From: a virus
Lineage: Duplodnaviria; Caudoviricetes
Reading direction: 5' to 3' (one strand)
IMG/VR virus record: IMGVR_UViG_3300009609_000004
Location: 1 to 62,220 of that record
Length of the DNA: 62,220 bases
Shown: one piece after another, positions 1 to 45,246 of the stretch
Layout: each line of letters starts with the position of its first letter
Position numbering within the stretch: position 1 is the stretch's first letter
Program-made: the position numbers and the translations under genes
The notes under the pieces: model-generated
Database searches by the model: none
What the model was told of the DNA's origin: nothing
The model's input: the letters and a program-made list of their open reading frames with translations, nothing else

Positions 1-123
1 CGCGTGGAAGCACTGTGGGGCTGGTCGACGCTGTACCCCGAGTGGGCTTGCCGCGAAGTGTCGAGTTCTTAACCGTCAACCGCAACCAGATTTCACCAAC
101 AAAACGAAAGGACAACAGAAAAC
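1..123. repeat. Terminal direct repeat (circular-assembly overlap), copy 1
   Basis: Bases 1-123 are identical to 62098-62220 and include the 3' end of the coat gene. Confidence 0.97.
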
Positions 124-125
124 GT

Positions 126-1157
126 ATGCGAAAAATTCTTCACATCCTGACGTTGGCTGCGGTTCTGCTGGCGGTCCAAGCGACCGCCTTCAGCCAGACG
201 CAGCCGACTTTCACGACACTTTCGGCCGCAGTTGCGGATGAGCGCACCACGCGACTCACCGTTACAAGCGCCACCGGATTCGTTGCCAGCAATCAAGCGA
301 CTGGTCTCGACTACGGACTTTTCGTCGACAACGAATTCATGCGTATCACCGCAGTCAGTGGTACGACGATCACGGTCGAGCGCGGCCAGGCGCGCACGAA
401 TGCTACGGCTCACAAATCAGGGGCCCGTGTATTTGTCGGCCAGTTCGGATCCCAACGGCAGAGTTCAACGCAGACCGGAGGCCCGTTTATCCAGTCTCCG
501 CTGTACGGTTCCTGCACGCGAACAACCGGGACGATCCTGCCGCTGATTCAGGTCAATCCGACGACGCTCGGCGGCCAGGCGCTCTACGATTGCAACAACG
601 GGAAGTGGATCAAGGCGACTCTGTTCGATGACCAGCCTCAATCCCCGCTCGTCGGCCCGTGTAGCGTTCCTATCGGCTCGGTCGCTTACGCTTCCTTCGG
701 CACGAACACCGCCGATGTTGCCAATAAGCGCATGTCGACGTCGATTTATGTACCGGTGACCGGTATCTATACCGGTGTGCAGTTCCTTCAGGGCGGCACG
801 GCTACGACCGATAACATCACGTTCGGGCTGTTCGATGCTGGAGGTAAGCCGATTGCGAATGCGGGGGCGACAGGCGTCCTGCTGGCGACGGCCGACACGT
901 TTAAGGCGGTGCCGTTCACTGCCGGCTCGTCTGGTAACGCTCAGACGTTGACGATTGTTCCTGGTCCGGCGAACTACTTCATCAGCCTGAACGCCAACGG
1001 TTCAACGGCTGGTGCAATCCGGACCGTTGCCGTGTCGACTTTCAAGAACGTTCTATCGGCCGGAACAACCAGCGTCACGTTTGGGACGTTTGTGGCATTC
1101 ACGCCCCCGACGACGTTCACTGCCGATCTTGCTCCTATCGGCTGCTTCTACAACTAA
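126..1157 (+). CDS. Signal-peptide-bearing virion accessory/decoration-like protein
   Basis: ATG 126 downstream of GAAAGGA; N-terminus MRKILHILTLAAVLLAVQATAFSQ; Thr/Gly/Ala-rich; follows the coat gene across the circular junction. Confidence 0.7.
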   Translation: MRKILHILTLAAVLLAVQATAFSQTQPTFTTLSAAVADERTTRLTVTSATGFVASNQATGLDYGLFVDNEFMRITAVSGTTITVERGQARTNATAHKSGARVFVGQFGSQRQSSTQTGGPFIQSPLYGSCTRTTGTILPLIQVNPTTLGGQALYDCNNGKWIKATLFDDQPQSPLVGPCSVPIGSVAYASFGTNTADVANKRMSTSIYVPVTGIYTGVQFLQGGTATTDNITFGLFDAGGKPIANAGATGVLLATADTFKAVPFTAGSSGNAQTLTIVPGPANYFISLNANGSTAGAIRTVAVSTFKNVLSAGTTSVTFGTFVAFTPPTTFTADLAPIGCFYN

Positions 1158-1173
1158 ACACCGCATGAAATAG

Positions 1174-1213
1174 GGTCCATAGCCGGGTCACCAGCCCGGC
1201 ATGGACCTTTTTT
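1174..1213 (+). terminator. Rho-independent terminator
   Basis: Hairpin GGTCCAT-A-GCCGGG...CCCGGC-ATGGACC followed by TTTTTT. Confidence 0.8.
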
Positions 1214-1245
1214 GCATTTCGTAAGAACAGAAAGGTCTCTCTTCA

Positions 1246-2742
1246 ATGAGAAAACTGTTACTTGCTCTACTGCTTCTGTTTATCCCAGCGATTGCAACCG
1301 CGAAGAATGCCCTCGGCGTGCTCTCTGCCTCTGCGAACTCGTGTACACCAACGACAGGCGTGGCGCTGACCCTTGATCAAAACGACAGTACCGCGACTAT
1401 TCAACTGAATGGAACATTCGTCGGAACGGTCACGTTCACCATTTCTTCGAACGGCGGCACATACACTGCGATTAAAGGGATTCCATCGACGCTCGGTTCG
1501 GCCACGTCGACGGCGACAAGTACCGGGGCGTGGATCTTCAGCGTTGCAGGATCGACGAATATCTGCGCCTACATATCCACTTACACGTCCGGGTCTGTAA
1601 TCGTCGTTATCAATTCGTCGTCGGCAATGGTCTCCGGGCTCACGAGTACGTCGCTTCCTCAGAGTCTCGACACGACGTCTTCCCCGACATTTGCCGCGCT
1701 GACTCTCAACCCAGGCGGTGCTACCGCTCTGACAGTTGAGGGTGCAACTGACGACACGGTTGAAACAATCGTCGCCTTTGCGGATCCAACATCCTCCGAC
1801 AAGACCGTGACGTTCGCCGATGCAACCGGCACGGTCATGCTCAGTACCCTTTCAACCAATGCTCCAGACGCTGCGAACAGTGTCACTGGCGCATCGAATG
1901 CCCTCGTGTTCGAGGGGGCCACGGCGGACGGCTTTGAGATTTCCGTCGCACCAGCAGACACAGGAGCGGATGTAACGATCACACTTCCTGCCGCAGCCGG
2001 AACCGTCATGCTGTCGACATTGGCAACCAACGCGCCGGACGCAGCAAACTCAGTGACCGGAGCGAGTGCGGCGCTCGTTTTCGAAGGAGCAACCGCCGAC
2101 GCATTTGAATTGAGCGTGACGGCGGCCGATCCAACGGTTGGCGACACGGTGCTGACGCTGCCCAATACCGGAGGCGTCAACGTCGCGGCAATGGTGAGCA
2201 CGCTCACAACAAACTCTCCGGATGCCGCGAATTCAGTGACAGGTGCCAGCGCCGCGCTGCTTTTCGAAGGTACCGCGGATGCCTTCGAAACCTCGCTGAC
2301 GGTCACCGATCCCACCGCAGACCGGACCGTGACAATTCCAGATTCCACCTTCACGGTCGGCCAGATCGAAGTGACCTACACCATGCTTGCGAACGGATCG
2401 CTCGCCGACCAGACGTTCTTCCTGGCCACGCGCGCTTACATCGTGACGGCAATTTCAGAAGTGCATTCAGTCGCCGGTAACGATGCGGGCGCCGTGAATC
2501 TACAGGTCACGAAAGACACTTCAACTAACGCGCCTGGGGCCGGCACGGACCTACTTACCAATAACGCCAATGCCGGATTTGACCTGAAGGGCACGGCAAA
2601 CACTGTCCAGGCGGGAACGCTCGCCGCTTCCGCCGCGACACTGACTCTTGCTGCTGGCGACCGGTTGGCCGTCGACTTCGCCGGAACCTTGGCGACTCTT
2701 GCTGGCGTGACGGTGACCGTCTCCATGCGACCAATCAACTAA
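1246..2742 (+). CDS. Signal-peptide-bearing fibre-like structural protein with internal repeats
   Basis: Leader MRKLLLALLLLFIPAIATA; three copies of STLxTNxPDAANSVTGASxALxFEG(A)TADxFE. Confidence 0.7.
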   Translation: MRKLLLALLLLFIPAIATAKNALGVLSASANSCTPTTGVALTLDQNDSTATIQLNGTFVGTVTFTISSNGGTYTAIKGIPSTLGSATSTATSTGAWIFSVAGSTNICAYISTYTSGSVIVVINSSSAMVSGLTSTSLPQSLDTTSSPTFAALTLNPGGATALTVEGATDDTVETIVAFADPTSSDKTVTFADATGTVMLSTLSTNAPDAANSVTGASNALVFEGATADGFEISVAPADTGADVTITLPAAAGTVMLSTLATNAPDAANSVTGASAALVFEGATADAFELSVTAADPTVGDTVLTLPNTGGVNVAAMVSTLTTNSPDAANSVTGASAALLFEGTADAFETSLTVTDPTADRTVTIPDSTFTVGQIEVTYTMLANGSLADQTFFLATRAYIVTAISEVHSVAGNDAGAVNLQVTKDTSTNAPGAGTDLLTNNANAGFDLKGTANTVQAGTLAASAATLTLAAGDRLAVDFAGTLATLAGVTVTVSMRPIN

Positions 2743-2763
2743 ACAGAAAGGAACTTTTCACCA

Positions 2764-3339
2764 ATGGCTTTCGATTACAAAAAACACCACACCCGCGCGA
2801 TGTATGCCCCGCAGGATTATGGCAGCATCAAAAAGGGCATGTCCAAGGAAGTGAACTCGCAGGATGAAGAGATCAATGCCCGTAAAGAGGGCTACACGAG
2901 CGAGCGTTACGTCAAGTCGGAGTACCCCACTACGTTCTGGCACAAGGAAACCGGTGCGACGCGAATCGTCGGGCGGATCGAGTGGTCGGTCGAGCAGAAC
3001 GATGAGGCAGTGGCGGCGGCGGAAAGAGACGGATTCGGACGCGAGCATGTAGCCGCAGCCGAAAAGAAAGCTGATGCGCAACTACAGCACGGCGGCTCCG
3101 GACTCATGGAACTGGCGACCCTAATCGCCGACATGCGAGCGAACCAGGAGGCCATCCTGCAGATCGGTGACGCCTGTTCGCGTATGGAAATCGCAGTGAC
3201 CGAACTCGTTGCGGCGAAGATCGCTGTAGATGCTCGCCTTGCCGAACTGGAGACCGCTCCAGACGCTCTGGCACCGCTCATTAAGCGACTCGATCAGATC
3301 GAAAAAGAACTGAAAAAAGAGCACAAGAAAAACGATTAA
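2764..3339 (+). CDS. Hypothetical protein with coiled-coil C-terminus
   Basis: RBS GAAAGGAA; clean ORF in the morphogenesis operon. Confidence 0.7.
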   Translation: MAFDYKKHHTRAMYAPQDYGSIKKGMSKEVNSQDEEINARKEGYTSERYVKSEYPTTFWHKETGATRIVGRIEWSVEQNDEAVAAAERDGFGREHVAAAEKKADAQLQHGGSGLMELATLIADMRANQEAILQIGDACSRMEIAVTELVAAKIAVDARLAELETAPDALAPLIKRLDQIEKELKKEHKKND

Positions 3340-3342
3340 CCA

Positions 3343-4122
3343 GTGACTGTCAACGACCTCATCTTTGAGGCTGGTGTCATGGCGGGCAACTTCTCGCCAT
3401 CGCAGGGCATGCCGCCGGAAGAAGCGGCGTACGGCTTTCGCAAGCTGGCTGACCTCATCGATCTCCTTAAAACCCACAGACTCACACTCTACCGTCGCCA
3501 GCGATGCGGTCCGTTCTCGGTGACCTCCGGGCAGGGAGACATCACCGCATCCAGCCCGATTACGATCGGGACAGGGGCGACGTGGAGTACGCCGCGTCCA
3601 GTCTGGATTGATGGCGCCGGACTGATCTACACGGCCGGCAGCGTTCCTTATCCCGAACTCCCGATGCGCGTCATGACCGTCAAGGAATGGCGCGCGGAAC
3701 AGGTCAAGGGGATAACGGCGACACTCTCCTACGCGTTGATCTACGACCAGACGTTTACTGCGGACGGCTACGGGCACATCTATCTGTATCCCGTGCCGAG
3801 CGCATCGTTTCAGGTTGTTCTCTACAACGGGATTCCGGTAGCGGAGTTCCCGCTCGACGCCAACGGCAATCCAGACTTCACGACGGCGATCGCGCTGCCG
3901 CCCGGCTATCGGATGATGCTGATTTCAAATCTGGCAAAAATCATGTGCCTGGGACTGCAGACGATCTCTGCCGATCTTCGCGAGACGGCCGAGAACAGCC
4001 TTGCCGACGTGAAGACCTCGAACCTTGTTCAGCACATGGACACGCTCAGTTGTGATAGCGCGGTGCGTCAGGACGGGAATAGAAGCGGCGGGTGGAATTG
4101 GATAACGGGAAACATAGAGTAA
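3343..4122 (+). CDS. Head-tail adaptor (P22 gp4-like)
   Basis: MTVNDLIFEA start, IYLYPVP and LPPGYRMMLISNLA motifs typical of podophage adaptors; position. Confidence 0.7.
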   Translation: MTVNDLIFEAGVMAGNFSPSQGMPPEEAAYGFRKLADLIDLLKTHRLTLYRRQRCGPFSVTSGQGDITASSPITIGTGATWSTPRPVWIDGAGLIYTAGSVPYPELPMRVMTVKEWRAEQVKGITATLSYALIYDQTFTADGYGHIYLYPVPSASFQVVLYNGIPVAEFPLDANGNPDFTTAIALPPGYRMMLISNLAKIMCLGLQTISADLRETAENSLADVKTSNLVQHMDTLSCDSAVRQDGNRSGGWNWITGNIE

Positions 4123-4482
4123 ATGGGCGAACTTCATCTCGGAATCGATTCTGTTCTTTTGTTCGCGCTCGGAATCATCGGCTACTTCCTCCGTTGGGTT
4201 CACAAGAAAAACGAAGAAACTCACACGGAGAACAAGGCGGCGTTGCAGGCGATCGAGAAGCGCCTTCTTTCCGACCTTGAAATCCTCGGCGTCGTCAACG
4301 GGAAGTACGTCAGCCGGAAAGAGCAGGATCTTGTGCTGAGGGAAAGCGAGACGCAGCACAGACATCTGAGCGAGAAGATCGAAACATTATCGAAGGAAGC
4401 GGCGGGACTGCGAACCCTCTGGGATAACAGCATTGCGACGCTCCTTTCCAACATCTACGCAGCACTGGAGCGCACGCGATGA
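4123..4482 (+). CDS. Membrane-anchored protein of the lysis region (holin-like or accessory)
   Basis: One N-terminal TM helix plus coiled coil; ATGA-coupled to the endolysin. Confidence 0.55.
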   Translation: MGELHLGIDSVLLFALGIIGYFLRWVHKKNEETHTENKAALQAIEKRLLSDLEILGVVNGKYVSRKEQDLVLRESETQHRHLSEKIETLSKEAAGLRTLWDNSIATLLSNIYAALERTR

Positions 4483-4964
4483 CGAAAGAAGAACTCGTAA
4501 AGATTGCCGTGCAGATTGCGCTGATGCGCGGTCTTGATCCGGCGCTCGTCTGTTCGATCTGCGCTCACGAATCTGCCGGCTGGAATATGTGGGCGACGCG
4601 ATACGAGCCCGCCTTCTACGCCCGATACATCGAGCCCATGAAAGACGTGCGGACATTCGGCCCGACGATCTCCCAGGCAACGGAGCGCCGCGATCGTGCG
4701 ACGTCCTTCGGGCTGATGCAGGTCATGGGCCAGGTGGCGCGCGAGTACGGATTCACGGGTGAATTCCTGAGCGAGTTACTCGATCAGCACAAAGGCATCC
4801 TGTACGGCTGCCTGAAACTGCAACGTTCGATCGATAAGAACAAGGGCAATGTTCCGGCAGGACTTCTTTCCTATAACGGTAGCGGCAACGCTCGCTACCC
4901 GGATCTGATCATGTCCCATTACAAAGACTACGCATATCTGAATTCAGCGACGAGGATACCGTGA
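4479..4964 (+). CDS. Endolysin, SLT-family lytic transglycosylase
   Basis: AHES, GLMQVM and SYNG motifs of SLT domains. Confidence 0.9.
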   Translation: MTKEELVKIAVQIALMRGLDPALVCSICAHESAGWNMWATRYEPAFYARYIEPMKDVRTFGPTISQATERRDRATSFGLMQVMGQVAREYGFTGEFLSELLDQHKGILYGCLKLQRSIDKNKGNVPAGLLSYNGSGNARYPDLIMSHYKDYAYLNSATRIP

Positions 4965-5242
4965 AGCAGTTCATTGAAGATCACTTCGACAAACTCCTGC
5001 TGGGCTGCATGCTCATGTACCTCGTCCACGTTGTTCTTTTTCTTTCCATGAGGCAGACAGCGCCGGAGGTCATCTCATGGGCTCGCGAATTGACCAGCGG
5101 GTTCGCGGGCGGACTGCTGGGACTGATCACCGGAATGCGTATTCAGAACGGAGGAAGTGATGTTAAGTCTCGCCTTAGCGTTTCTAAAATCGACAATCAA
5201 AAACAGGAAAAAGGCAGCGAAGATCGAGAAGGAGTTAATTGA
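4961..5242 (+). CDS. Putative holin
   Basis: Two hydrophobic segments and a charged C-terminal tail; overlaps the endolysin stop. Confidence 0.6.
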   Translation: MKQFIEDHFDKLLLGCMLMYLVHVVLFLSMRQTAPEVISWARELTSGFAGGLLGLITGMRIQNGGSDVKSRLSVSKIDNQKQEKGSEDREGVN

Positions 5243-5300
5243 GATCCGCGATCTGATCAACGAGTACCTGGAACTCCCACGTCCCGGCAAAACAAAATGA
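5160..5300 (+). CDS. Small cationic amphipathic peptide (46 aa), not in the ORF track
   Basis: GGAGG upstream of ATG 5160; MLSLALAFLKSTIKNRKKAAKIEKELIEIRDLINEYLELPRPGKTK. Confidence 0.55.
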   Translation: MLSLALAFLKSTIKNRKKAAKIEKELIEIRDLINEYLELPRPGKTK

Positions 5301-5350
5301 TGTTCCCCGGCCAGTAAGCCGAACAGGTTTCCCCTCACCGCTCCCTCGGT

Positions 5351-5383
5351 AAAGCCCCCGTCGCAAGGCGGGGGTTTCTTTTT
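5351..5383 (+). terminator. Rho-independent terminator after the lysis cassette
   Basis: GCCCCCGTC-GCAA-GGCGGGGGT hairpin followed by TTCTTTTT. Confidence 0.8.
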
Positions 5384-5395
5384 GGAGTCCAAACA

Positions 5396-6394
5396 ATGAA
5401 GAAAACTCTCATCGCGGCATTAATGCTGGCGTTGCTTCCTGTCGCGCTGTTCGCGCAGCAGCCTGTCACCGGGTCGATCACGGCAACCAGTTCGAACTGC
5501 ACGTCGACGGCTTGCGTCATGTGGCAGCTCCCGCAGGGCGGCAATACGACCAACATCGGTACGGTCGCCATGCAGGTCACTGGCACATTCTCGGCCACGC
5601 TGCAGTTCGAGGCGGCGATCGATGGGAACTCGTTAACGCCGACGTTTGTCGCGATCTACGGGTTCCCCATTGGATCGAGTACGCCGGCAACGTCCACTAC
5701 CAGCACCGGTCTCTGGCAGTTCTCAACGGCGGGACTCTCGGTCATACGCGTCCGCGCTTCTGCCTATACGAGCGGCACGGCGGTCGTTTTGATGACTGCA
5801 TCGAATCCCAACTTCGGAGGTGGAGGCGGTGGTGTTGGTGGAGGTGGCGGACCGGTCACGATAGCGGACGGCGCGGACGTTGCAGAAGGCTCGACGACGG
5901 TAGATCGCTGCGCAACTACCGATACGACGACATGCACCCTGGTTGGACTGGCCAAGCAAACGAATTGGTTTCTGGAAAACTCGACAGGTCAAACCACGCT
6001 TGCAGGTTCGAACTCGGTCAATCTGGCTTACCCGACCTTGGCGAGTGGGTTTATCTCCACTGCGATGACCGGAACGACGTCGACCGTCTTTGGCGGTGGG
6101 TTGGCCGCAACTGCGAATAACTACATCTATCTGACGTCCTGCACGACATCAAACTCAAGTCTGACTGTTTCGACGGACATCTTACTTCAGGACGGAAGCG
6201 GCGGAACAACGCTCTATGTTCTGCCTGCTCCAGCTGCAGCAGTGGCGACAACTGGCGGCGGTGGAGGGACGTTTACCTTCCCAATGCCGATCAAGGTTCC
6301 AACCGCAGGCAATGCGCTCTACGCAGCCAATGTAACCTCGGGATCGTCGACGAAGATTTCCTGCTCGGGCTTCAAGTCGACAATTAGCTACTGA
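5396..6394 (+). CDS. Signal-peptide-bearing structural-like protein
   Basis: Leader MKKTLIAALMLALLPVALFAQ; N-domain similar to that of 1246..2742; poly-Gly linker. Confidence 0.7.
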   Translation: MKKTLIAALMLALLPVALFAQQPVTGSITATSSNCTSTACVMWQLPQGGNTTNIGTVAMQVTGTFSATLQFEAAIDGNSLTPTFVAIYGFPIGSSTPATSTTSTGLWQFSTAGLSVIRVRASAYTSGTAVVLMTASNPNFGGGGGGVGGGGGPVTIADGADVAEGSTTVDRCATTDTTTCTLVGLAKQTNWFLENSTGQTTLAGSNSVNLAYPTLASGFISTAMTGTTSTVFGGGLAATANNYIYLTSCTTSNSSLTVSTDILLQDGSGGTTLYVLPAPAAAVATTGGGGGTFTFPMPIKVPTAGNALYAANVTSGSSTKISCSGFKSTISY

Positions 6395-6395
6395 T

Positions 6396-7247
6396 ATGAA
6401 GAAGGCGTTTCTCTTTATCGCGATTCTCTGCCCTGCTCTGCTGTTCGCGCAGAGTCTCCCAACGACAGGTTTAACCTACCACGCGAAAGCGCAGGTTGAC
6501 ACAGACATCTGGCAAGTCAACACGGGCGGGGTGTTCTCAGACCATCCTACGGACGGTGAAGCGGTCAAGTACGCCGATGACGTTGCGCACGGTCTGTATT
6601 CACTAGGGCAGAACGGCGCAGATCCTATCTGGGATGTCTCGACGCCGCTGATGGTCCTGCCGAACCTGGCATTCGACGGGACTGATGACCAGCTTCGCAC
6701 CGAACTAAGTTCGACAGAAGGCTCAGTCAACGCCAGTAATTTTGTAACGGTCAGCGCCGCCACCATGATTTTCGCAATCTACGTGGAGGCAGTAGACACA
6801 AACAACGCTGCCACATACGACAACGATGCCATCATTTCGGAGGGTACGGGGAATTTCGGACTTGTGCTGAAAAACAACGCAGGTGCCTATACCATCTGCT
6901 ACGCAAATTTCGACGGCTCCGACGACAGCGTTTGTAAATCCATCTCGATCAACACGACGTATGTAGTGATGGCTCGGCACGAATCAGGAAATATCTACAT
7001 CTCGATTAACGGAGGGGCCGAAACCTCAGCGGCGAGTGGGAACACGTCAGGCGTCGGAGCGCCTGTATACATTGGACGCAACTACAACGCGGCTCAGTTC
7101 TACGCTGGCCGAATTGGTGAGCTTGCTCTATGGAATGTTGCGCTGACAGGTACGGACCTTTCAGACGCTATTGCCTACTTCCGGAACATTTGGACGCCTT
7201 CTAACCGCAGATGCACGATGTCTTTACTTGGGGTGGGTGGATGTTAA
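6396..7247 (+). CDS. Signal-peptide-bearing LamG/ConA-like lectin-fold protein
   Basis: Leader ending ALLFAQ; FDGTDD and YIGR...YAGRIGELALWNVALT LamG-like motifs. Confidence 0.75.
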   Translation: MKKAFLFIAILCPALLFAQSLPTTGLTYHAKAQVDTDIWQVNTGGVFSDHPTDGEAVKYADDVAHGLYSLGQNGADPIWDVSTPLMVLPNLAFDGTDDQLRTELSSTEGSVNASNFVTVSAATMIFAIYVEAVDTNNAATYDNDAIISEGTGNFGLVLKNNAGAYTICYANFDGSDDSVCKSISINTTYVVMARHESGNIYISINGGAETSAASGNTSGVGAPVYIGRNYNAAQFYAGRIGELALWNVALTGTDLSDAIAYFRNIWTPSNRRCTMSLLGVGGC

Positions 7248-7452
7248 CCGCTCGTACATTACCTGCTGCTCGAGAGGTGGATCAGTGAGCCGCAATTGCG
7301 TCCCTCGTTCCGATAGCAGCGCCTGTCGGAATGGAACAAGCGAGAACTCTAACTGTTTCGCATTCGTTTCAGGCAGGAACGTTCCTGCTACATCCAGTAG
7401 CCAAAGAGCCAGTCGCATCCGCATATCGGTATTAACCCGCACCCTTGATCTT

Positions 7453-10188
7453 ATGTCAAGGTTCGTGGTAGCGGCTATGTTCATCCTCATTTTCTCGCTT
7501 TCCGCGCATGCCGCCTGTACCGGCTCCAGCCCAACATGGACCACTACTGTAGACAGAGCATCTGTTCAATCCTGCCTCGATTCAGCCGTTGACGGCGACA
7601 CGATCAACATCTCGGCAGGTTCGGACACCTGGACAACTGCGGTTTCGTACACAAATAAGAGGCTCAAGATACTAGGTCCAACCTGCACGCTGAATGCTGC
7701 CGGTCAGCCTACAGCCTGCCCCGTAGTCATCTCCGTCAACACTGGCAACTCGGCAATCGTCGCGACCATTTGCTCAGCCGATGACTTCATGGAAATCGGG
7801 CATTTGGAGTTCGTTCTCCTGTCAGTGTCAAACGCGGGCGTTATTGAGACCAATTGCACTGCCGCGAATGGCTACCCGGCTGAGGCGTTCCGCGTTCATC
7901 ACGTCAGGATGACTGGAAGCCCGGTCAGTGGCGGACGATGGATGCTGTTCTACGCGACCTACGGCCTCGTGGACCACGTGTATTTGTCCTCCGGAACGGT
8001 GGGCAATATCTCGATGGCGCAGGACAACACAAGCAGCACCTGCAACTCCTATCACGAGCCGTTTGCTCTCGGCGACGAATACGCGCTCTTCATCGAAGAC
8101 AGTTATCTTTACTCGACTGGCGTGAACGTTGGGAATGGCACCCAGGATCACTACATGGGTGCACGATACGTCTTCCGGATGAATACGGTTTACAACAACC
8201 ATTCCGGGCATCACGGACTGGACTCCGGCAATTGCGGCGTGCCGACGTTCGAGTATTACGGCAACACCTGGATATCCGAAAGTGGCATCCCGAGTGTTCA
8301 GTTGATCCACCCGAGAAGCGGAACCGGAATCGTGTGGGGAAACAAGGTCCAAAACAACGTCAACGCGGCGAATGGATATACGAGCCTTCTCCGGCCTATT
8401 TGTTATGCCTGCATGTCGGATTCTGAGGCGCTTGGCATCACCAATCTTGGCGACCTGGGTTTGTCCGCACGCGCCGCCCGCTACTACCCAACTGGCACGT
8501 GGGGAGCGCCGTACACGGGGACGTCCAACTATGACGACGGGCTCGGAAACTACGTCAAAAGCAACGTTCTCATCGATGGGAACCTGAACGGCAGCTATCC
8601 GCTCGGGAACATGGATTCTGGTTTAAGTCGAACAGTTACCGATATGGTGACGACGGCCGGAAGCACGACAATCACATCGACCAACGCAGACTTCGTTGCA
8701 GGTGACGTGACCGGAGTTCCCGTTACTCAAGCCGAAAACTTTGTAGCTGGGCGGTCGCTGTCCTGCACTGTCGTCAGCGGCGATCCAACGGTTGTATGTG
8801 CTGGAGGAAATTTCACCGCAGCCGATGATGGACGAGAAGTTAGTTCGCTGGATCAGTCAACAATCGTTTCGCCGAACGTGACCACGATTGATTCCATAAC
8901 GAACTCCACCACTGTGGAACTAGTCAACGCTCCAGAGACAACAGGAACGCAGGTACTAGTCTTTGCCGATCCTCGTATCGTCTCAATCTCAGATGAACAC
9001 ACGGCAGTAATGAACGTCCCGGCGACGGCAAACGGGACAGGAAAAACCCTAACCATCGGCTACAGCAATCAGCGTTACCCGCTCGCCGATCAACCAGGGT
9101 GGGGTTACTTCGCATCGGCGAATGCAGGGCTTTGGCCGACACAGACCTCCTATTCAACGGCAAACTTTGAAGGTCTGATGCCAATCTACATGGTCGGCAA
9201 TCTCTGGCAGACGGTCAACGATTCACTGGTTGTGCAGACAAGCACGAATCCGCCCGCGACGGCGGCGTTTTTCACTTCAACAGGCGGCTATCTCAAAGCA
9301 GATCGGGAGTGGTACGACCCCTATCCGAATCCAGCTGGGGCTGGCATTCAAACAAACGCGACCACGCCGTTTAACGGAACGTCGGGAACCGGCATCGGAA
9401 CGATAGAGAACATCCCAACGACATGCACGGCTGGAGTCGGTTATTGGGCAGTCAATGAAGGAACGTGGAACAGCGGCAGCTTCACCTACACGTATCCGAA
9501 CGGCGGCAGCACTTACACTCATGGCCGGTTCTATAAGTGCGTAGCTACGGATGATTGGGATCTGTTCTACACGCCCTTCGATTACCCGCACCCCCTTCAG
9601 GGCGCAGTTACTCTGACTTCAGTGTCACCCGATCAAGGTAGTCAAAACACGACGGCAGCGGTCACTCTGACCGGGACGGGATTTGACGGCGGCAACTTCG
9701 CTGTCCAAATTACCGGTTCCAACGTCACGATTAATAACATCGCTGGATCAGGCGGAACCACACGCACCGCAGACTTCGTAATTGCAGCGGGAGCGGCCAC
9801 GGGCGACCGAAGCGTTACCGTATCCACGGATGCCGGAACCAGCAACGCTGTCACATTTACCATTGTCGGGTCCAGTGCGCCAGTCTTGACGTCCTTCACC
9901 CCGACTCAGGGAGTTCAGGGCGCTTCCTACTCATTCACGGTTATTGGAACAGGGTTCGACGGTGGCTCTGGAACGTTGACGGAATCCTGCACAGGGTTGT
10001 CATTAAGCGGAATCACTGTTGTCAGTGCGACAAGGATCACGGCGACGCTGACGCTGGCGTCGGACGCTTCGTTAGCTGGCTGCGTTATCGCAGTCACAAC
10101 TACAGGCGGAACAAGCAATACTGAGGTTTTCCAGCCTCAGGCTCTTGCTCAAGCTGGTTATGGAGTAGGACGAACACGAAGAAGGTAG
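7453..10188 (+). CDS. Large signal-peptide-bearing protein: beta-helix-like N-part plus two C-terminal IPT/Ig-like domains
   Basis: Likely start ATG 7453 (MSRFVVAAMFILIFSLSAHA); two repeats of the LTSVSP...TLTGTGFDGG type; many paired Cys. Confidence 0.7.
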   Translation: MSRFVVAAMFILIFSLSAHAACTGSSPTWTTTVDRASVQSCLDSAVDGDTINISAGSDTWTTAVSYTNKRLKILGPTCTLNAAGQPTACPVVISVNTGNSAIVATICSADDFMEIGHLEFVLLSVSNAGVIETNCTAANGYPAEAFRVHHVRMTGSPVSGGRWMLFYATYGLVDHVYLSSGTVGNISMAQDNTSSTCNSYHEPFALGDEYALFIEDSYLYSTGVNVGNGTQDHYMGARYVFRMNTVYNNHSGHHGLDSGNCGVPTFEYYGNTWISESGIPSVQLIHPRSGTGIVWGNKVQNNVNAANGYTSLLRPICYACMSDSEALGITNLGDLGLSARAARYYPTGTWGAPYTGTSNYDDGLGNYVKSNVLIDGNLNGSYPLGNMDSGLSRTVTDMVTTAGSTTITSTNADFVAGDVTGVPVTQAENFVAGRSLSCTVVSGDPTVVCAGGNFTAADDGREVSSLDQSTIVSPNVTTIDSITNSTTVELVNAPETTGTQVLVFADPRIVSISDEHTAVMNVPATANGTGKTLTIGYSNQRYPLADQPGWGYFASANAGLWPTQTSYSTANFEGLMPIYMVGNLWQTVNDSLVVQTSTNPPATAAFFTSTGGYLKADREWYDPYPNPAGAGIQTNATTPFNGTSGTGIGTIENIPTTCTAGVGYWAVNEGTWNSGSFTYTYPNGGSTYTHGRFYKCVATDDWDLFYTPFDYPHPLQGAVTLTSVSPDQGSQNTTAAVTLTGTGFDGGNFAVQITGSNVTINNIAGSGGTTRTADFVIAAGAATGDRSVTVSTDAGTSNAVTFTIVGSSAPVLTSFTPTQGVQGASYSFTVIGTGFDGGSGTLTESCTGLSLSGITVVSATRITATLTLASDASLAGCVIAVTTTGGTSNTEVFQPQALAQAGYGVGRTRRR

Positions 10189-11853
10189 ATGGACTTCCCA
10201 CAACTGATAGGCCCCTCCTATACAACCTGGTCTCCGAAAGCTGAAATCCAGAGCTGCAAGAATCTCTACCTCGAGCGGATCGAGAGCGGTGCCGGTCGCA
10301 ACCGGTACGCGATGTACATGACGTTCGGGACGGAGGTTTGGCATGGCGCGCTTGGGTCGACGAATCGCGGCTTCCTGCTCGACCCGACGAACAATCACCT
10401 CTTTGCGCTTCAGGACAGCACGGTGTACGACCTACTGAGTGACGGCACGACGAACGCGAGTTACGCCGGTGTTTCAGATGACGGGCTTATGGCCAGCATC
10501 GACGCAACCAGCAACTCGCTTTTTATTGTAAGCAAGAACATTCTCTATCGGGTATTCGGCGGCGCGCTGACGACGCCGGCAACGCCATTCACGCCGGAAG
10601 CAGTGGCTGTGATCAATGGAATTGTCGTCACACTCGCCGCAGGAACGAATCGGTTCTATTTCTCGAATGACGATGGGGCGACATGGGGCGCGCTGGATTT
10701 TCAGACGGCGGAAGCCTACCCGAACACCCTGATCAACATGGTTGTTGATCATCAAGAACTGTGGCTCTTTGGGAATCGGCGCACGCAGGTCTTCGTCGTC
10801 GGCCTCGATCCGGACGCTCCGTTTGATCCGGTTTCTTCCGGAGTGATCGAGATGGGGCTTGCGGCAAAACGCGCCGTGGTCCGGATGGATAACTCGATTT
10901 ATTGGCTCGGCCGCAACAAGGACGGCGACCACATGGTTTACCGGGCGAACGGGTATCTGCCGGTTCGTGTGAGCACGCATGCCGTCGAGAACGCCTTCCG
11001 CTCCTATTCGGAACATGAAGACGCCTTCATGCAAGCGTTCCAGTTAAACGGTCACTCGTGCTTCCGGCTGACGTTCCCATCGGCGAATAACGGCCTCGGC
11101 GCCACATGGCAGTACGACGCGAGCCTGCCACCTGAATTAGCGTGGGTCGAAGTCCCCTGGTGGAATCTGCGGCAGGGGCAATACGAGCGGAACCGTGCAA
11201 ACGGCATCGTGTCTGCGTTTGGCAAGATCCTTGTAGGCGATTACGCGAACGGGCACATCTACGAAATGAGTCCGGACTTTGCCTACGATTGGGGTTTCCC
11301 GCTGCGATGGGAGCGGCGTTGCCCACACATCACTCAGGATCGAAAGCGCATTCGGTATCAGCGGTTCGATCTGTTTATTCAGCCCGGCGTCGGCCGCGTT
11401 GCTCCGTTGTGGCTGAATTCGTGGTCCCTGGACCCTGCCACCTTCGCGTCGGATCTGGCGGCCGCTGTGTTCCTCGGCTCGGTGACCTCGGCACAGGCGG
11501 TCACGCTTCAGCGTATCTACGATTACCTGCCTTACACGCCGCTCGATACGTGGCCTTCGCCGGATGTGATGAACGCCCTCGGTTTCTATCCGTGGGGGAG
11601 TGTTTCGAGTCTTTCAAATGGAACGACATTGGGAGATCCGCCTCAGCTTGCAGCTCGGTGGTCGGACGATGGCGGGGAAACCTTCGGGGCGTACCAGTAT
11701 CGCAGCATGGGCCTCAGCGGTGAGTACAGCAAGGAATTGTCATGGCTTCGCTGCGGCATGGGATTCGATCGGGTGTGGGAGATCAGCGGCGACGCGCCTG
11801 TGAAGACTGCCATCGTGCAGGGCACGTTCGATGCTGAGGTATGCCAGAACTGA
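10189..11853 (+). CDS. Tail hub / packaged-DNA stabilization protein (P22 gp10-like)
   Basis: AEAYPNTL, ELWLFG, RVSTHAVE and RWSDDGG motifs typical of the family. Confidence 0.85.
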   Translation: MDFPQLIGPSYTTWSPKAEIQSCKNLYLERIESGAGRNRYAMYMTFGTEVWHGALGSTNRGFLLDPTNNHLFALQDSTVYDLLSDGTTNASYAGVSDDGLMASIDATSNSLFIVSKNILYRVFGGALTTPATPFTPEAVAVINGIVVTLAAGTNRFYFSNDDGATWGALDFQTAEAYPNTLINMVVDHQELWLFGNRRTQVFVVGLDPDAPFDPVSSGVIEMGLAAKRAVVRMDNSIYWLGRNKDGDHMVYRANGYLPVRVSTHAVENAFRSYSEHEDAFMQAFQLNGHSCFRLTFPSANNGLGATWQYDASLPPELAWVEVPWWNLRQGQYERNRANGIVSAFGKILVGDYANGHIYEMSPDFAYDWGFPLRWERRCPHITQDRKRIRYQRFDLFIQPGVGRVAPLWLNSWSLDPATFASDLAAAVFLGSVTSAQAVTLQRIYDYLPYTPLDTWPSPDVMNALGFYPWGSVSSLSNGTTLGDPPQLAARWSDDGGETFGAYQYRSMGLSGEYSKELSWLRCGMGFDRVWEISGDAPVKTAIVQGTFDAEVCQN

Positions 11854-12254
11854 TCAGCCTCGATAACCTCGAGGTCCGCACCCCTATCGTTGAATTTCCG
11901 ACCAGGCAAGGAACGCCGATTGGGTTACAACTCACGGGCCCTTGGCAGCGGCGGTTTGAAAGCCTTTGGCGGTATGTGCAGCGCAAGCGAGCCGTTCGGG
12001 AAGTTTCTACTTCTCGCAACATCGCATACAGCGAGCGCAGCGCCATCCTGCTTGCAACCGGAACGATCACGCTGACACTGCCCGCTGCTGAGATCGGTGA
12101 CACCTTCTACGTTTTCAATTACGGTTCCGGGGTCATCACGATCGCCGGAACGATCAATGGAAATGCGCTCGGATACCAACTGACGAACCAGTACCAATAC
12201 GCCGAGTTCACCAACGTCGACGGCTCCAACTGGATCGTAACGATCAACAACTAA
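11841..12254 (+). CDS. Tail-associated protein
   Basis: Overlaps the hub gene; C-terminal ITLTLPAA...DGSNW beta domain seen in tail proteins. Confidence 0.55.
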   Translation: MPELISLDNLEVRTPIVEFPTRQGTPIGLQLTGPWQRRFESLWRYVQRKRAVREVSTSRNIAYSERSAILLATGTITLTLPAAEIGDTFYVFNYGSGVITIAGTINGNALGYQLTNQYQYAEFTNVDGSNWIVTINN

Positions 12255-12263
12255 CAACATAAA

Positions 12264-13052
12264 ATGAGATTCGCTGCGCTACTCGCTGCTGTTGCGCTTG
12301 CGGTCGCACCTATTCCACAGGGCGGCCAAGCCACCGTCGTTCGCCACGGCTCAAGCCTCCCGTCTGTCTGTACAGCAAATCAGGACCTCTTTATTCGGGA
12401 CAGCGTCGGCCCCTACTGGTGCTCCGCGGCGAATACGTGGTCGCTCATCGGTGAGCCTGCGGGCCTGATCGGCATGGTCGAGACGGGAACCTGTCCGACC
12501 GGCTACACGCAAGTCACCTCGATCGATGGCCGGATGGCTCTTGCAACGCTGGCGGCACACGGCGACGTGGGGACGACGGGCGGCAGCGACAACATCACGC
12601 CCGCTGGAACGAACAGCGCCCCTGTTTTTACCGGCAATCTAGAAGACACGACAGATGTGAGTGCGGGGACGCCGGCAGGAACAAACAGCGCGGCGACGTT
12701 TACCGGAAACGGCGCGGTCCTGACGGGGACGGTTTCTCAGCCGACCTTTGCCGGCGATGCGGTTACGGCGGCAAGCACGGCGGCTACGCCCGACCTTGTT
12801 GCAGCCGATGTCACCGGAGCGGGAGTCAGTCCCGTCACAACAGCAACGGGGACGGTTTCTCAGCCGACCTTGTCGATGGACAGCTACACGCCAACTGGGA
12901 CCAACAGCGCGGCCACATTTACAGGGAATGCGCTCCCGACACATGAGCATGAAGTGACTGCGACTGGCACGAATTCGGCGCCGACATTCACCGGCACTCA
13001 GTTCGACAACCGCAGCGGATTTATGCGCGTCATATTTTGCAAGAAAGCCTGA
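12264..13052 (+). CDS. Short tail-fibre/collar-like protein with signal peptide
   Basis: Leader MRFAALLAAVALAVA; collar-like PAGLI...CPTGY...GTTGGS; repeated GTNSAxxFTG; HEHE; C-terminal RVIFCKK. Confidence 0.65.
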   Translation: MRFAALLAAVALAVAPIPQGGQATVVRHGSSLPSVCTANQDLFIRDSVGPYWCSAANTWSLIGEPAGLIGMVETGTCPTGYTQVTSIDGRMALATLAAHGDVGTTGGSDNITPAGTNSAPVFTGNLEDTTDVSAGTPAGTNSAATFTGNGAVLTGTVSQPTFAGDAVTAASTAATPDLVAADVTGAGVSPVTTATGTVSQPTLSMDSYTPTGTNSAATFTGNALPTHEHEVTATGTNSAPTFTGTQFDNRSGFMRVIFCKKA

Positions 13053-13059
13053 AAGCCCT

Positions 13060-14931
13060 ATGAAAAAGATTTCCGCTCTGATCCTAATTCTCCTGTTCGT
13101 CATTGCTCCAGTCGCTGCGCAGAACACGGGCGAGCTTGCGACATGGACGATGCCGACGTTTGTGATTGCCGATGGGCACACGCCGGCGGCCCTGGGTTTT
13201 ATCTGTACGACCTCCAGCGGTGGGAGCACTCCGCTCGCGACCTACAGGGATACGGCCCTCACGCAGGCGAACCAGAATCCGATCCGGCTCAGCGCATCGG
13301 GGCAACCTGTCAACAGCGGCACTCCGGTATCGATCTATCTTCTTGCGCAGTCGTACCGGTTCACGCTGTATGCGGCGGGTACGGGCAACACTTGCAACGG
13401 GACGGCAGTCGGTACGCAACTCCGGCAGGTTGACGGGATCTACAATCTCGCTCAACTCTTCACGGAAGCCTTCGTCACAAAACTCGACGACAAAGTGTGC
13501 CACGCCGCGGCGTATACGACACTCGCGAACGCCGGAGCGAAGATCGCGGAATGCCTCTCCGTCCTTCCTTCAACGGGTGGAACAGTTGACGCGCGCGGCC
13601 TTGAAGGCGCTCAAACCGCAACTGCGAATCCGTTCGCAAGTGTGACGAAGCCGTTCGTTCTCCTACTGGGATGCGCGACGATATCGACTTCCGCGCAGTG
13701 GTCCCTTACCGGCCAGGGGCAAAGCATCGTCGGCGCTGGCCGCTGCAGTGTCCTGAAAGCCTCTGGCGCCATAGCGAGCGTACTGAAGCAAGACGGTACG
13801 GTAATCGGAGGAAACGGACTTCAGGGCGGCTATATCGGCCATCTTCGCATCGACGGCAACGGGCTCGCTACTGATGGCTGGATCGGCACGCGAATCTCTG
13901 GCGTGGTGGTTGATCAGGTATCGGTCACAAACGTCACGAGTGCCGGGTTCCGATGCGTCACCGCTTCTTTCGGATGCGTGACCGTCACGTTCAACACGCC
14001 GATTGTCAGCGTCAATTACGAAGCGTTTTCCACGGTTCCAACCTACGGAATTCGGTTCGATGATTCCGGATCTTCAAACAATACGATTATCACATCGAAG
14101 TTTGAAGGGATCACGACTGGCACAGGAATCGGGATTCTCGACGAAGGACAGGCCAACAATTATTACGGCGGAACAACTGAAGGAAACGATGTTGGAATCC
14201 GGACAGGAACGAACGGGCACCACACTTTCTATGGACTGTTTCTTGAGCTGAACACCGTCGCGGACATCCAGATTTACGGGTTTGAAAACGCGTTTATCAA
14301 CATGACCTCGACGTCGGACGTTGCGAATTCGACGCAGTTCATTGGCGCGAGTTCCTATAAGAACAGGCTACAGGATGGGTTCTATACGCGGATCACTCTG
14401 GACGTCGCGAGCGCCTACAACATTCTCGATAATGCCGATGCGACCGTCAGCCTGACGGATAACTCAGCAACAACAACGTGGCGCAATATCAATGTGGCTG
14501 GAGTGGCGCAGCAGGACCGCGGGCCTTATACGATCCTTGCGGAAACCATCACGACGCTCACAAGTACGACGGCAAGCATCACGACGGGCAATATCACGAC
14601 GGCAAACATCACGAACGCCGTGGTCTCTGACTCGGTTGTCGGGGCGGCAGGCGCTGGCCTCAGCCTGAATCTTCAACCTGGAAACAACTCCGCTGGCGAT
14701 GTGCTAATCCGGGACTATCAGAGCACCACGAGGGCTACCGTAGATCAGAACGGCTTCAAGATTGAGCCGGTCGCCTTCGCCGCTCTCGGTACGGCAACGC
14801 TTGGTCTGATCAAACCATGCTCCGACTGCACGGTGACCAGTGGCGCGGACAATACTTGCACGAATGGCGGGACCGGGGCTCTGGCGGTGGCTCTGAACGG
14901 TGTTTGGAGGTGTTTTAATGCGCAGAACTGA
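13060..14931 (+). CDS. Tailspike (head-binding domain plus beta-helix) with N-terminal signal peptide
   Basis: Leader MKKISALILILLFVIAPVAAQ; TPLATYRD...NQNPIRL...YRFTL...VDGI particle-binding motif; pectin-lyase-like central region. Confidence 0.75.
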   Translation: MKKISALILILLFVIAPVAAQNTGELATWTMPTFVIADGHTPAALGFICTTSSGGSTPLATYRDTALTQANQNPIRLSASGQPVNSGTPVSIYLLAQSYRFTLYAAGTGNTCNGTAVGTQLRQVDGIYNLAQLFTEAFVTKLDDKVCHAAAYTTLANAGAKIAECLSVLPSTGGTVDARGLEGAQTATANPFASVTKPFVLLLGCATISTSAQWSLTGQGQSIVGAGRCSVLKASGAIASVLKQDGTVIGGNGLQGGYIGHLRIDGNGLATDGWIGTRISGVVVDQVSVTNVTSAGFRCVTASFGCVTVTFNTPIVSVNYEAFSTVPTYGIRFDDSGSSNNTIITSKFEGITTGTGIGILDEGQANNYYGGTTEGNDVGIRTGTNGHHTFYGLFLELNTVADIQIYGFENAFINMTSTSDVANSTQFIGASSYKNRLQDGFYTRITLDVASAYNILDNADATVSLTDNSATTTWRNINVAGVAQQDRGPYTILAETITTLTSTTASITTGNITTANITNAVVSDSVVGAAGAGLSLNLQPGNNSAGDVLIRDYQSTTRATVDQNGFKIEPVAFAALGTATLGLIKPCSDCTVTSGADNTCTNGGTGALAVALNGVWRCFNAQN

Positions 14932-14940
14932 GAGGGGCCC

Positions 14941-22438: not shown

Positions 22439-22532
22439 GGGGCAATCTCCGCCACTTGTTCAATGTGTTTCTGCAGACCTGGGCGCGTTCGGCCGCCTCG
22501 TCGAGAGTCAGGTAATCGTGTGTTTCTTTCAC
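22371..22532 (-). CDS. Small Xis/HTH_17-like protein (53 aa), not in the ORF track
   Basis: GAGGA upstream of GTG; MKETHDYLTLDEAAERAQVCRNTLNKWRR; overlaps the end of the large ejection gene. Confidence 0.55.
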   Translation of the reverse strand: MKETHDYLTLDEAAERAQVCRNTLNKWRRLPLTVQAWRVAARSVRLPVVPASP

Positions 22533-22550
22533 GTTTAAAGTCCTCAAGGT

Positions 22551-22826
22551 TTATGCCTTGCGCTGAATTGCCCTAATGAAGTCGTTCTTGGTTAAACCTT
22601 TGGCGAGTACCTGCTGAAGCAACTCACGTCTCACCTGAAGCGCATGTCGATTAATCAGGCCTAGCTGCTCCGAATCTCTTGGAATCGCTATACCGTCACG
22701 TCGTCCCGTGCATACGGTTTGATCGTAGGCTTCGCATCGTTCGTGATACTGCTGCGCCAGATCGTAGAGAAAACGGTCCTTTTCGCTGATCTCAAACGTG
22801 CCCATGAACTGCTTTCCGAAATCCAC
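22551..22826 (-). CDS. Hypothetical protein (cassette array)
   Basis: ORF starts at the linker repeat containing GGGAGGG. Confidence 0.65.
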   Translation of the reverse strand: MDFGKQFMGTFEISEKDRFLYDLAQQYHERCEAYDQTVCTGRRDGIAIPRDSEQLGLINRHALQVRRELLQQVLAKGLTKNDFIRAIQRKA

Positions 22827-24726: not shown

Positions 24727-24986
24727 GATTTCTCTTTCTGTTCTGTAGGGGTGAGGGCTTCAAGGGCGAATACTTGCACGTCACTTAGGATGTGGCTGGC
24801 ATGCTTGCCGATAGTGGACCACTCGTTGATTCGTCGCAGCGCCTCTTCCAGTTCCTTCACGCGGGCTTCACGTTGCCGATTTGCTTCATACAGACTTGCG
24901 TTTTGCCGACGTAGCTGTCCGTTGCTCTTATTGGCACTCTTAAGTTGACAATCACGACATGGACCGGGACCGCATCGATGGATCAT
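24723..24986 (-). CDS. Hypothetical coiled-coil protein
   Basis: ATGA-coupled on both sides. Confidence 0.6.
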   Translation of the reverse strand: MIHRCGPGPCRDCQLKSANKSNGQLRRQNASLYEANRQREARVKELEEALRRINEWSTIGKHASHILSDVQVFALEALTPTEQKEKS

Positions 24987-34582: not shown

Positions 34583-34653
34583 CACCCCCTACCTCCCCAA
34601 CGCTAAATCGGTATACGATACCCATCCATGACAGCCATAGGGTGTATCTCGTA

Positions 34654-45244: not shown

Positions 45245-45246
45245 GG

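Follow-up and report, generated by a model that had tools for sequence, protein, structure and literature searches.

Seven large proteins encoded in the morphogenesis block of a P22-like podovirus, its tailspike among them, begin with predicted Sec-type signal peptides (leaders). The phage is represented by IMG/VR virus record IMGVR_UViG_3300009609_000004, a complete genome whose 62,220 bp make up the whole stretch of DNA analysed here (the window). The seven proteins, called SP1 to SP7 in gene order (Table 1), have even numbers of cysteines behind their leaders; in the SP1 and SP7 families, the leaders are kept in relatives and the cysteines come and go largely in pairs. Fold and domain comparisons suggest that the seven are add-on parts of the particle, that is, the tailspike, fibres or lectins and probably decoration. 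Export and oxidative folding of these add-on parts is the best-supported reading, well supported if indirectly, and their docking onto particles at or after lysis is a plausible hypothesis. To our knowledge, the assembly of tailed-phage particles is assumed to take place entirely in the cytoplasm, and a search of open-licence papers and preprints brought up no account of tailed phages whose tailspikes or tail fibres bear Sec leaders.

Results

Seven large ORFs of the morphogenesis block start with Sec-type leaders

An earlier note on this DNA had named seven open reading frames (ORFs), starting at 126, 1246, 5396, 6396, 7453, 12264 and 13060, as beginning with a basic n-region and a hydrophobic h-region, and all seven were found with both features at these starts. 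The n-regions read M(K/R)(K/R), MSR or MR, with one to three basic and no acidic residues, and each h-region has a 10-15-residue core of Leu, Ile, Val, Phe and Ala. The best 10-residue Kyte-Doolittle mean is 2.8-3.8, beginning at residues 3-6 (five ORFs scored from the first start), and all seven ORFs pass a 9-residue hydrophobicity threshold of 2.3. With the cleavage point marked by an arrow, the predicted junctions are MRKILHILTLAAVLLAVQATAFS↓QTQP (ORF 126), MRKLLLALLLLFIPAIATA↓KNAL (1246), MKKTLIAALMLALLPVALFA↓QQPV (5396), MKKAFLFIAILCPALLFA↓QSLP (6396), MSRFVVAAMFILIFSLSAHA↓ACTG (7453), MRFAALLAAVALAVAPIPQG↓GQAT (12264, where the site is ambiguous) and MKKISALILILLFVIAPVAA↓QNTG (13060). 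Small residues occupy positions -3 and -1 in six of the seven (AFS↓Q, ATA↓K, LFA↓Q, LFA↓Q, AHA↓A and VAA↓Q), which agrees with the claim that the sites are mostly AxA-like; SP6 has no clean site. Gln stands at +1 in SP1, SP3, SP4 and SP7. None of the seven n-regions contains a twin-arginine (RR) motif, and none of the leaders has a lipobox, L-(A/S)-(G/A)-C; SP5 has a Cys two residues past AHA, but its -3 residue is His.

The leaders were called with our own n/h/c-region heuristic script, not with SignalP. It flagged eight of the 29 window ORFs of at least 200 amino acids (aa), seven of which are those listed above; the eighth flag, at 14941, was rejected, as it came from an internal Met only. 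Among the core parts (portal, scaffold, coat, adaptor, hub and three ejection proteins), none was flagged at the N-terminus, just as the note had stated. Leaders are thus found on seven of the 15 large ORFs of the morphogenesis block, and beyond the block only two small minus-strand ORFs (38280-38735 and 43950-44297) look leader-like or membrane-anchored. As controls, the same script flagged 3/25 ORFs of the Xanthomonas P22-like phage PBR31, whose tailspike was unflagged, and 0/10 in the more distant podophage contig L003. The three PBR31 flags are one internal-start false positive, one accessory "putative structural protein" and one esterase, which had already been reported with a signal peptide. 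The accessory protein, orf035 (24674-25483), has a Sec-type leader (MKKLIALFSLFC...) and lies directly 3' of the leaderless tailspike; leader-bearing accessory proteins beside tailspikes are therefore not limited to the window lineage.

Five of the seven ORFs start at the first start codon of their frame, and those at 126 and 7453 have in-frame GTG or TTG codons upstream. The ATG starts of these two are favoured because orthologs begin with the leader, because a GAAAGG motif precedes three of the genes, 126 among them, and because the in-frame translation of 7171-7452, ahead of 7453, is not protein-like. Gaps to the neighbouring genes measure 0-9 nucleotides (nt) at the 7453/hub boundary, at 12264 and at 13060, which places these three genes within the late operon. 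Orthologs and gene packing both back the starts, contrary to the possibility that the true starts lie downstream of the hydrophobic segments.

The leaders are conserved in relatives of the tailspike and of SP1

Whether homologs keep the leaders was one of the checks named in the earlier note, and most do. From 33 database homologs of SP7, 29 were taken in; the script found a leader in 25 of these, with Gln at +1 in 22 of the 25. Of the four leaderless homologs, three are short or cut off at the N-terminal end, and the N-terminus of the fourth is of another kind. In an alignment of eight family members, the junction Gln is invariant, whereas the residues ahead of it are not conserved. A cluster-representative library contains 974 relatives of SP1 at E<=0.001; among the best 150, 91 are of full-length size, and 86 of these have a leader, 76 with Gln at +1. 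The remaining five match the C-terminal domain only. Related contigs show the same trait: L001/L002 (one contig, with a hub 57% and a coat 81% identical to those of the window) encodes six leader proteins, two of which are tailspikes, and in L005 and L006 a leader-bearing tailspike adjoins the hub. On these comparisons, the leaders are real, conserved and under selection.

The hydrophobic N-termini might instead be uncleaved anchors, structural or membrane-penetrating helices, or products of wrong start calls, in line with the lack of a clear cleavage site in SP6 and with AlphaFold2 (AF2) models in which the leaders are simply helices. We consider this very unlikely. The n/h/c layout is canonical, small residues stand at -3 and -1 in six of seven, the junction Gln is invariant across families, the starts are backed by orthologs and gene packing, the leader character is conserved although the sequence is not, and even, co-varying Cys are found only in leader-bearing versions, as described below.

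Cysteines behind the leaders occur in co-varying pairs

The mature parts of all seven proteins have an even number of Cys (Table 1). Their leaderless neighbours have odd numbers (1, 3, 3, 1 and 5), four and six (portal and coat), or none. Across five phage records, the Cys count is even in 17/20 leader proteins versus 30/55 leaderless ORFs (Fisher p 0.014), and within the SP1 family it is even in 85 of the 86 leader-bearing relatives.

The positions co-vary as well. In an alignment of 48 SP1 members, 28 have both pairs, 130/156 and 179/340, 19 have the first pair alone and one has the second alone, and a pair is never represented by a single Cys. For the SP1 C-terminal domain, 16 of 28 viral-contig homologs were aligned, the remainder being duplicates or fragments; in these 16 (15 leaderless, one with a probable leader), Cys 179 and Cys 340 never occur together, and two have the first only. 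In the SP7 family, C49 and C112, both in the head-binding-type domain, are present together in 25 sequences and absent together from four, with no case of one alone. A second pair changes its position jointly (147 or 149 with 165 or 178) in 18 sequences, two exceptions aside, and the two members of a third, 190/214, are found in the same four sequences. Paired, co-varying Cys are thus limited to leader-bearing versions, which is the pattern of disulfide-bonded exported proteins and points to disulfides formed outside the cytoplasm.

The Cys pattern also bears on the idea of two pools, in which export is partial or is bypassed late, a cytoplasmic fraction assembles as in P22, and the exported fraction has a separate role in the envelope. 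Dual-start designs are known for phage lysis genes, and residue 31 of SP7, just past the leader, is an in-frame Met. We rejected this Met as an internal start, as it is not conserved among the homologs. The other six genes have no internal start near the leader; the strict Cys pairing argues for an oxidised functional form, and a precursor with a 15-residue Leu/Ile/Phe core would probably be aggregation-prone in the cytoplasm. Two pools therefore appear improbable.

The leader proteins resemble add-on parts of the particle

SP7 is built like a P22-type tailspike, with a head-binding domain at residues ~30-130 (nt 13147-13449) followed by a probable beta-helix. Its AF2 model, made from 29 sequences, is confident over residues 31-300, with pLDDT 85-95 over 31-130. 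In Foldseek searches, residues ~30-130 match the head-binding domains of P22, Sf6 and cyanophage Pam1 (prob 1.0, TMt 0.50-0.68), and full-length P22 gp9 (E 2.3e-6) and Sf6 tailspike chains are also matched. The head-binding domain that had been called recognisable was thus recovered by fold, whereas Pfam gave no match to it. The first turns of the beta-helix (140-300) are well modelled; the C-terminal half has pLDDT <50. Several SP7 homologs carry PF13229 or PF12708, and SP7 itself has no Pfam match. Throughout the family, the N-terminal domain is constant and the C-terminal enzyme domains are swapped, which is the usual tailspike design. A tblastn search of SP7 against isolated phages returned only two weak beta-helix matches, in Escherichia phages; PDB sequence searches with SP7, SP5 and SP1 returned nothing useful; and a complex prediction of the hub with three mature SP7 N-terminal domains, run without controls, gave a score of 0.01, which speaks neither for nor against docking.

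SP1 consists of a small N-terminal beta domain and a C-terminal jelly-roll-like domain (AF2 pLDDT 87.9). Its best Foldseek match is a protein of the cyanophage A4 capsid asymmetric unit (PDB 9jwb chain Z, E 2.9e-5, TMt 0.56, C-terminal domain). The C-terminal domain also matches the central fibre of a mycobacteriophage, and the N-terminal domain matches a chain of the phage GP4 portal-tail complex. A viral structure library yielded 82 matches to SP1 at E<=0.001, among them tail-fibre, minor-tail and collagen-repeat proteins. Like the capsid-bound A4 protein in fold, and encoded directly after the coat gene, SP1 is likely a capsid decoration or head fibre on these models; unlike A4 chain Z and decoration proteins, it starts with a leader and an additional N-terminal domain and has two Cys pairs, and its capsid binding is putative. 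The N-terminal domain (~50-80 aa) is repeated 24 times in the relative P0172 (7472 aa) and 10 times in P0264 (2172 aa), and hence doubles as a repeat unit in giant proteins.

The remaining five proteins are more varied. SP2 and SP3 share a domain of ~110 aa right behind the leader (35% identity over 111 aa, E 6e-10) and differ in their C-termini. The Atlas structure of SP2 leads to viral clusters and one phage cement cluster, which we treat as leads only, and the nearest Atlas clusters of SP3 are ~90% viral. SP4 is a concanavalin/LamG-type lectin domain (PF13385, E 2.6e-10, above cut-off). SP5 has TIG/Ig-like repeats that remain below threshold (Pfam TIG, E 5e-4, 20.4 bits versus a cut-off of 20.9). 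SP6 has repeated GTNSAxTFTG motifs and an HxH motif of fibre type, as judged by eye only. Searches of Pfam and PHROGs gave no match for SP2, SP3, SP6 or SP7.

The strongest rival to a virion role is that the proteins are exported and never become part of the particle. They would then be lectins and glycan-degrading enzymes that remodel the surface polysaccharide of the infected cell (for receptor destruction, release, exclusion or matrix degradation), and the particle would bind cells through another protein, for example a needle. A precedent exists in WceF of Pantoea stewartii, an exported bacterial tailspike-like enzyme with a signal peptide, a P22 head-binding-like N-terminal domain and a trimeric beta-helix (PMC7949094). 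Unlike WceF, which as described there is encoded in a chromosomal exopolysaccharide cluster and has a twin-arginine translocation (Tat) signal, the window genes lie in a phage late operon, with the hub gene as a neighbour, and encode Sec-type leaders that lack a twin-arginine motif. Porphyromonas phages likewise encode uncharacterised leader proteins with Gln at +1, which are thought to modify the host surface (PMC10367356). The leader-bearing accessory proteins of PBR31, beside its leaderless tailspike, fit the same idea, as does the lack of a Pfam-recognised particle-binding domain in SP4 and SP5.

Several observations argue against it. No other candidate for receptor binding was found in the window, where only leaderless ORFs of 191 and 137 aa are left in the block, and the genome does encode a hub of the kind on which six tailspikes normally sit. 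Essentially all complete members of the SP7 family combine the leader with the head-binding-type domain, whereas the enzyme domains behind them are swapped. Moreover, the genes lie in tight translational packing, with the hub gene on one side and the ejection genes on the other. We therefore regard the exported, non-virion reading as unlikely, and the two-pool reading and the reading without a signal peptide as less likely still.

A cultured phage of Acidobacteriota shows the same trait

The podophage Tunturi_2 (PP885685), isolated on the acidobacterium Tunturiibacter psychrotolerans, shows the same leader trait in positions 9802-22744. Sec-type leaders were found on gp12 (1190 aa), gp13 ("tail fiber"), gp14 ("pectin lyase"), gp16 and gp17 ("virion structural protein", 1280 aa). 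The four large leader proteins have 20, 10, 20 and 34 mature Cys, with an A↓Q cut in three of them. Tunturi_2 is a podophage unrelated to the window lineage, and the Tunturi phages are not among the best 30 of the 45 records matched by a search with the window hub. In the siphovirus Tunturi_4, which comes from a sister host, no tail-module protein encoded in the first 50 kb carries a leader. The distal tail parts of this phage must initiate tail assembly, and a leaderless tail thus fits the idea that only last-added parts can be routed via the periplasm, on the example of one genome.

Exposure of Gln, at the frequencies given above for the window proteins and for the SP7 and SP1 families, makes these leaders resemble signal peptides that follow the Gln+1 "Q-rule". 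The rule has been described as Bacteroidetes-specific, in text that makes no mention of Acidobacteria (PMC5837995), and Porphyromonas phage proteins that obey it were noted earlier (PMC10367356). Unlike those earlier phage cases, which are uncharacterised proteins and not tailspikes, it appears here on tailspikes and in a phage of an acidobacterial host. The predicted Tunturi_2 cuts that expose Gln are ASA↓Q, GFA↓Q, ANA↓Q and AGA↓Q. Judging from such predicted cuts, the Q-rule may extend to Acidobacteriota or their phages.

Genome context and lysis cassette

A single block of the window encodes a portal, coat, scaffold, hub and ejection proteins of P22 type (PF16510, phrog_283, phrog_8865, phrog_578 and phrog_598), and close homologs of its coat protein match PF11651. 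Starting with the portal gene at 57371, the block extends over the record ends to 22438. In the relative contig L002, the SP1 ortholog lies directly 3' of the coat gene, which corresponds to the window block running from 57371-62169 into SP1 across the record ends. The tblastn matches of the hub are annotated as "stabilization protein" or "tail tubular protein B", and the hub is the expected docking partner of the tailspike. For the 137-aa protein encoded 3' of the hub, no family match was found in Pfam or PHROGs; its position would make a needle or plug possible.

A putative lysis cassette lies within the tail block on the plus strand, between the adaptor gene and SP3. No lipoprotein o-spanin was seen in 4100-5420. 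The hairpin that follows the cassette is the only strong terminator-like hairpin in 1-16000, and a sigma-70-type scan, which is a weak test, found no promoter-like site on the plus strand of the same interval. The idea of a moron with its own promoter and terminator was not supported, given the lack of a plus-strand promoter-like site, the single terminator and the gaps of 0-9 nt around SP5, SP6 and SP7.

Table 1. Features of the window discussed in the text, with leaders and cysteines of the seven leader proteins
Feature	Position (nt)	Strand	Leader (predicted cut)	Cys in mature part	Remarks
SP1, 343 aa	126..1157	+	residues 1-23 (nt 126-194), AFS↓Q	4, in two pairs	
SP2, 498 aa	1246..2742	+	residues ~1-19	2	
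Tail adaptor, P22 gp4 / SU10 adaptor-like	3343..4122	+	none		phrog_12985 E 1.6e-10; Pfam SU10_adaptor E 7.5e-5, sub-cut-off
Spanin-like or holin-like protein (putative)	4123-4482	+			N-terminal transmembrane segment, by hydrophobicity, and coiled coil
SLT transglycosylase (putative function)	4479-4964	+	none		Pfam SLT PF01464 E 8.4e-7
Holin candidate	4961-5242	+			two transmembrane segments, by hydrophobicity
Lysis cassette (putative)	4123..5242	+			
Intrinsic-terminator-like hairpin	5352..5377	+			11-pair stem, 7 GC pairs, T tail; between lysis cassette and SP3
SP3, 332 aa	5396..6394	+	residues 1-20, LFA↓Q	6	N-terminal domain paralogous to SP2
SP4, 283 aa	6396..7247	+	residues 1-18, LFA↓Q	4	
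SP5, 911 aa	7453..10188	+	residues 1-20, AHA↓A	16	stop abuts hub start
Tail hub, P22 gp10-like "head closure Hc3"	10189..11853	+	none		phrog_578 E 1.3e-75
137-aa protein 3' of hub	11841..12254	+	none	0	N-terminus conserved in L001 and L005
SP6, 262 aa	12264..13052	+	leader-like N-terminus, cut ambiguous	4	
SP7 tailspike, 623 aa	13060..14931	+	residues 1-20 (nt 13060-13119), VAA↓Q	12	
Three ejection / internal virion proteins (478, 480, 1541 aa)	14941..22438	+	none	0	phrog_598 DNA ejection E 9e-19; phrog_6651 internal virion protein E 2e-9
Small-terminase match	34225-35187	+			PF03592, 25.4 bits versus cut-off 26.1
Serine resolvase/invertase	35439-36020	+			PF00239 E 7e-47
SPFH/Band-7 membrane protein	44294-45244	-			PF01145 E 2e-30
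DUF6745 protein	45712-46977	-			E 2e-71
Tyrosine integrase	49576-50799	+			PF00589 E 6.5e-26
Large terminase, ATPase-type N-part	53750-54700	+			PF03237
Endonuclease VII-like ORF	54710-55288				phrog_2633 E 5e-29
Large terminase, nuclease-type C-part	55298-56068	+			phrog_5653 / phrog_2
Portal	57371-59665	+			PF16510 E 6e-124
tRNA-Arg(TCT)	59682-59756	+			
Scaffold	59836-60873	+			PHROG match (scaffold/coat pair: phrog_8865 and phrog_283)
P22-type coat	60922-62169	+			PHROG match (scaffold/coat pair: phrog_8865 and phrog_283)

Other features of the genome are listed in Table 1 as well. A tRNA gene lies within the late operon, between the portal and scaffold genes. The tyrosine integrase and a second recombinase, of the serine type, indicate that the phage is temperate. 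The large terminase looks split, with an endonuclease VII-like ORF between its two pieces, an arrangement that suggests insertion of a homing endonuclease or an intron; the small-terminase match lies ~19 kb from these pieces. On the minus strand, the SPFH/Band-7 gene adjoins the small membrane-anchored ORF 43950-44297 and shares an early-region stretch with the DUF6745 gene, and this stretch, 43950-46977, may by its content be a membrane-associated accessory or defence-like module. Among the 20 other window ORFs that were searched, no helper genes for export or disulfide formation were found. DNA of the window is listed for two DNA data sets, a groundwater and a freshwater-sediment metagenome, one of which may be its source, and for no RNA data set; the phage is probably one of soil or groundwater.

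Discussion

We propose that SP1 to SP7 are P22-like add-on parts of the virion that are Sec-exported, locked by disulfides and joined to particles at lysis, a proposal that in our estimate stands at about even. Each add-on protein would be synthesised late as a precursor with a leader cleavable by Sec/signal peptidase I and would be moved to the periplasm. Leader removal would, in most cases, expose an N-terminal Gln able to cyclise, and disulfide bonds would then lock the mature protein in the periplasm. DNA-filled heads with portal, adaptor, hub and ejection proteins would be built in the cytoplasm as usual. The two pools would meet only once the inner membrane and the wall give way to the leaderless transglycosylase and the membrane proteins encoded with it in the block, and in last steps coupled to lysis the tailspike would dock on the hub and the capsid would be decorated. 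The likely gain would be that proteins facing soil or groundwater have disulfide cross-links and a blocked N-terminus; a second role could be surface remodelling of the dying cell. We infer export, cleavage, disulfides, presence in the virion and the time and place of docking from the comparisons above.

Assembly of this kind has partial precedents. In vitro, finished P22 heads accept tailspikes. The membrane lesions made by canonical holins are very large, and a leaderless endolysin needs such a lesion to reach the wall; through it, periplasmic tailspikes and decoration proteins could meet cytoplasmic heads before or at burst. Filamentous phages provide an example of virion proteins, including the receptor-binding one, that mature outside the cytoplasm, as their g3p and g8p have Sec leaders. 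Unlike these unrelated phages, which are extruded through the envelope without lysis, the window particle would be icosahedral, DNA-packaging and tailed, and its genome has a lysis cassette.

The similarity to the P22 and Sf6 tail machine (gp9/gp14 on hub gp10/gp8, with adaptor gp4/gp7) extends to the portal, coat, hub and adaptor, to the head-binding fold and probable beta-helix of SP7, and to the exchange of C-terminal enzyme domains behind a constant N-terminal domain. The tailspikes of P22 and Sf6 are not known to have leaders and assemble in the cytoplasm, and that of PBR31 is leaderless. In contrast, the tailspike family of the window is marked by its Sec-type leader and by conserved pairs of Cys, C49/C112 among them. 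Other products of phage late or tail regions use Sec before lysis, namely signal-peptide or signal-arrest-release (SAR) endolysins, spanins, and the tail-region lipoproteins or outer-membrane proteins Llp, Cor, Lom and Bor, and PBR31 has spanin and esterase examples of exported late proteins. Unlike these small lysis or exclusion factors, the window leaders are on virion-module proteins of 262-911 aa, and they have neither a lipobox nor a weakly hydrophobic SAR-type segment.

The earlier note had also proposed that outer parts of this particle are exported, fold in the periplasm and dock at or after lysis. In part this proposal stands, on the conserved leaders, the virion-type modules and the co-varying Cys pairs, and its docking step keeps the rank of a hypothesis. 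A number of points weigh against it. Three of the 20 leader proteins in the five phage records have an odd Cys count, two tailspike homologs (P0026 and P0029) have an unpaired Cys at one alignment column, and the whole-protein count is even in only 17/25 tailspike homologs. WceF keeps a head-binding-like fold without a role in a virion, and the fold alone is therefore no proof of docking. Docking after lysis carries the risk of dilution and of incomplete particles. As for the relatives, no prophage was found in a bacterial/archaeal genome collection scanned with hub and tailspike alignments, and the sole hint to a host taxon is one weak SP7 homolog labelled Acidobacteriota. The main text of the Tunturi paper does not contain the terms "signal peptide", "transmembrane" or "mass spectrometry" (PMC11924767), and the "structural" labels of Tunturi_2 are accordingly depositor annotations.

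A wider form of the proposal covers both the window lineage and Tunturi_2. The periplasm would serve as a morphogenesis compartment in environmental podoviruses, every add-on part (tailspikes, side fibres, lectins and capsid decoration) would be Sec-routed, pyroglutamyl-trimmed and disulfide cross-linked by the machinery of the host, and infectious virions would be completed only when holin and endolysin merge cytoplasm and periplasm. Maturation would in this way be tied mechanically to lysis, and the exposed parts would be hardened against conditions in soil or groundwater. We put this forward tentatively, as possible and somewhat more doubtful than not. If it is true, a signal peptide no longer argues against a structural role in a tailed phage; the absence of signal peptides has been used as support for the phage origin of a binding protein (PMC6199706).

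The cultured pair of Tunturi_2 and Tunturiibacter psychrotolerans makes the question testable at the bench, and either answer would be of consequence. If the seven proteins are not virion parts, the phage spends ~16% of its genome on secreted surface-active proteins and has no obvious tailspike, which would also be unusual. If they do belong to the virion, annotation and host-range pipelines need correcting wherever a leader makes them dismiss a protein as a contaminant or a host-interaction gene. Virion parts of this kind would imply an undescribed last assembly step outside the cytoplasm, would link the timing of lysis to the completion of the particle, and would explain how exposed proteins are stabilised in phages of soil bacteria.

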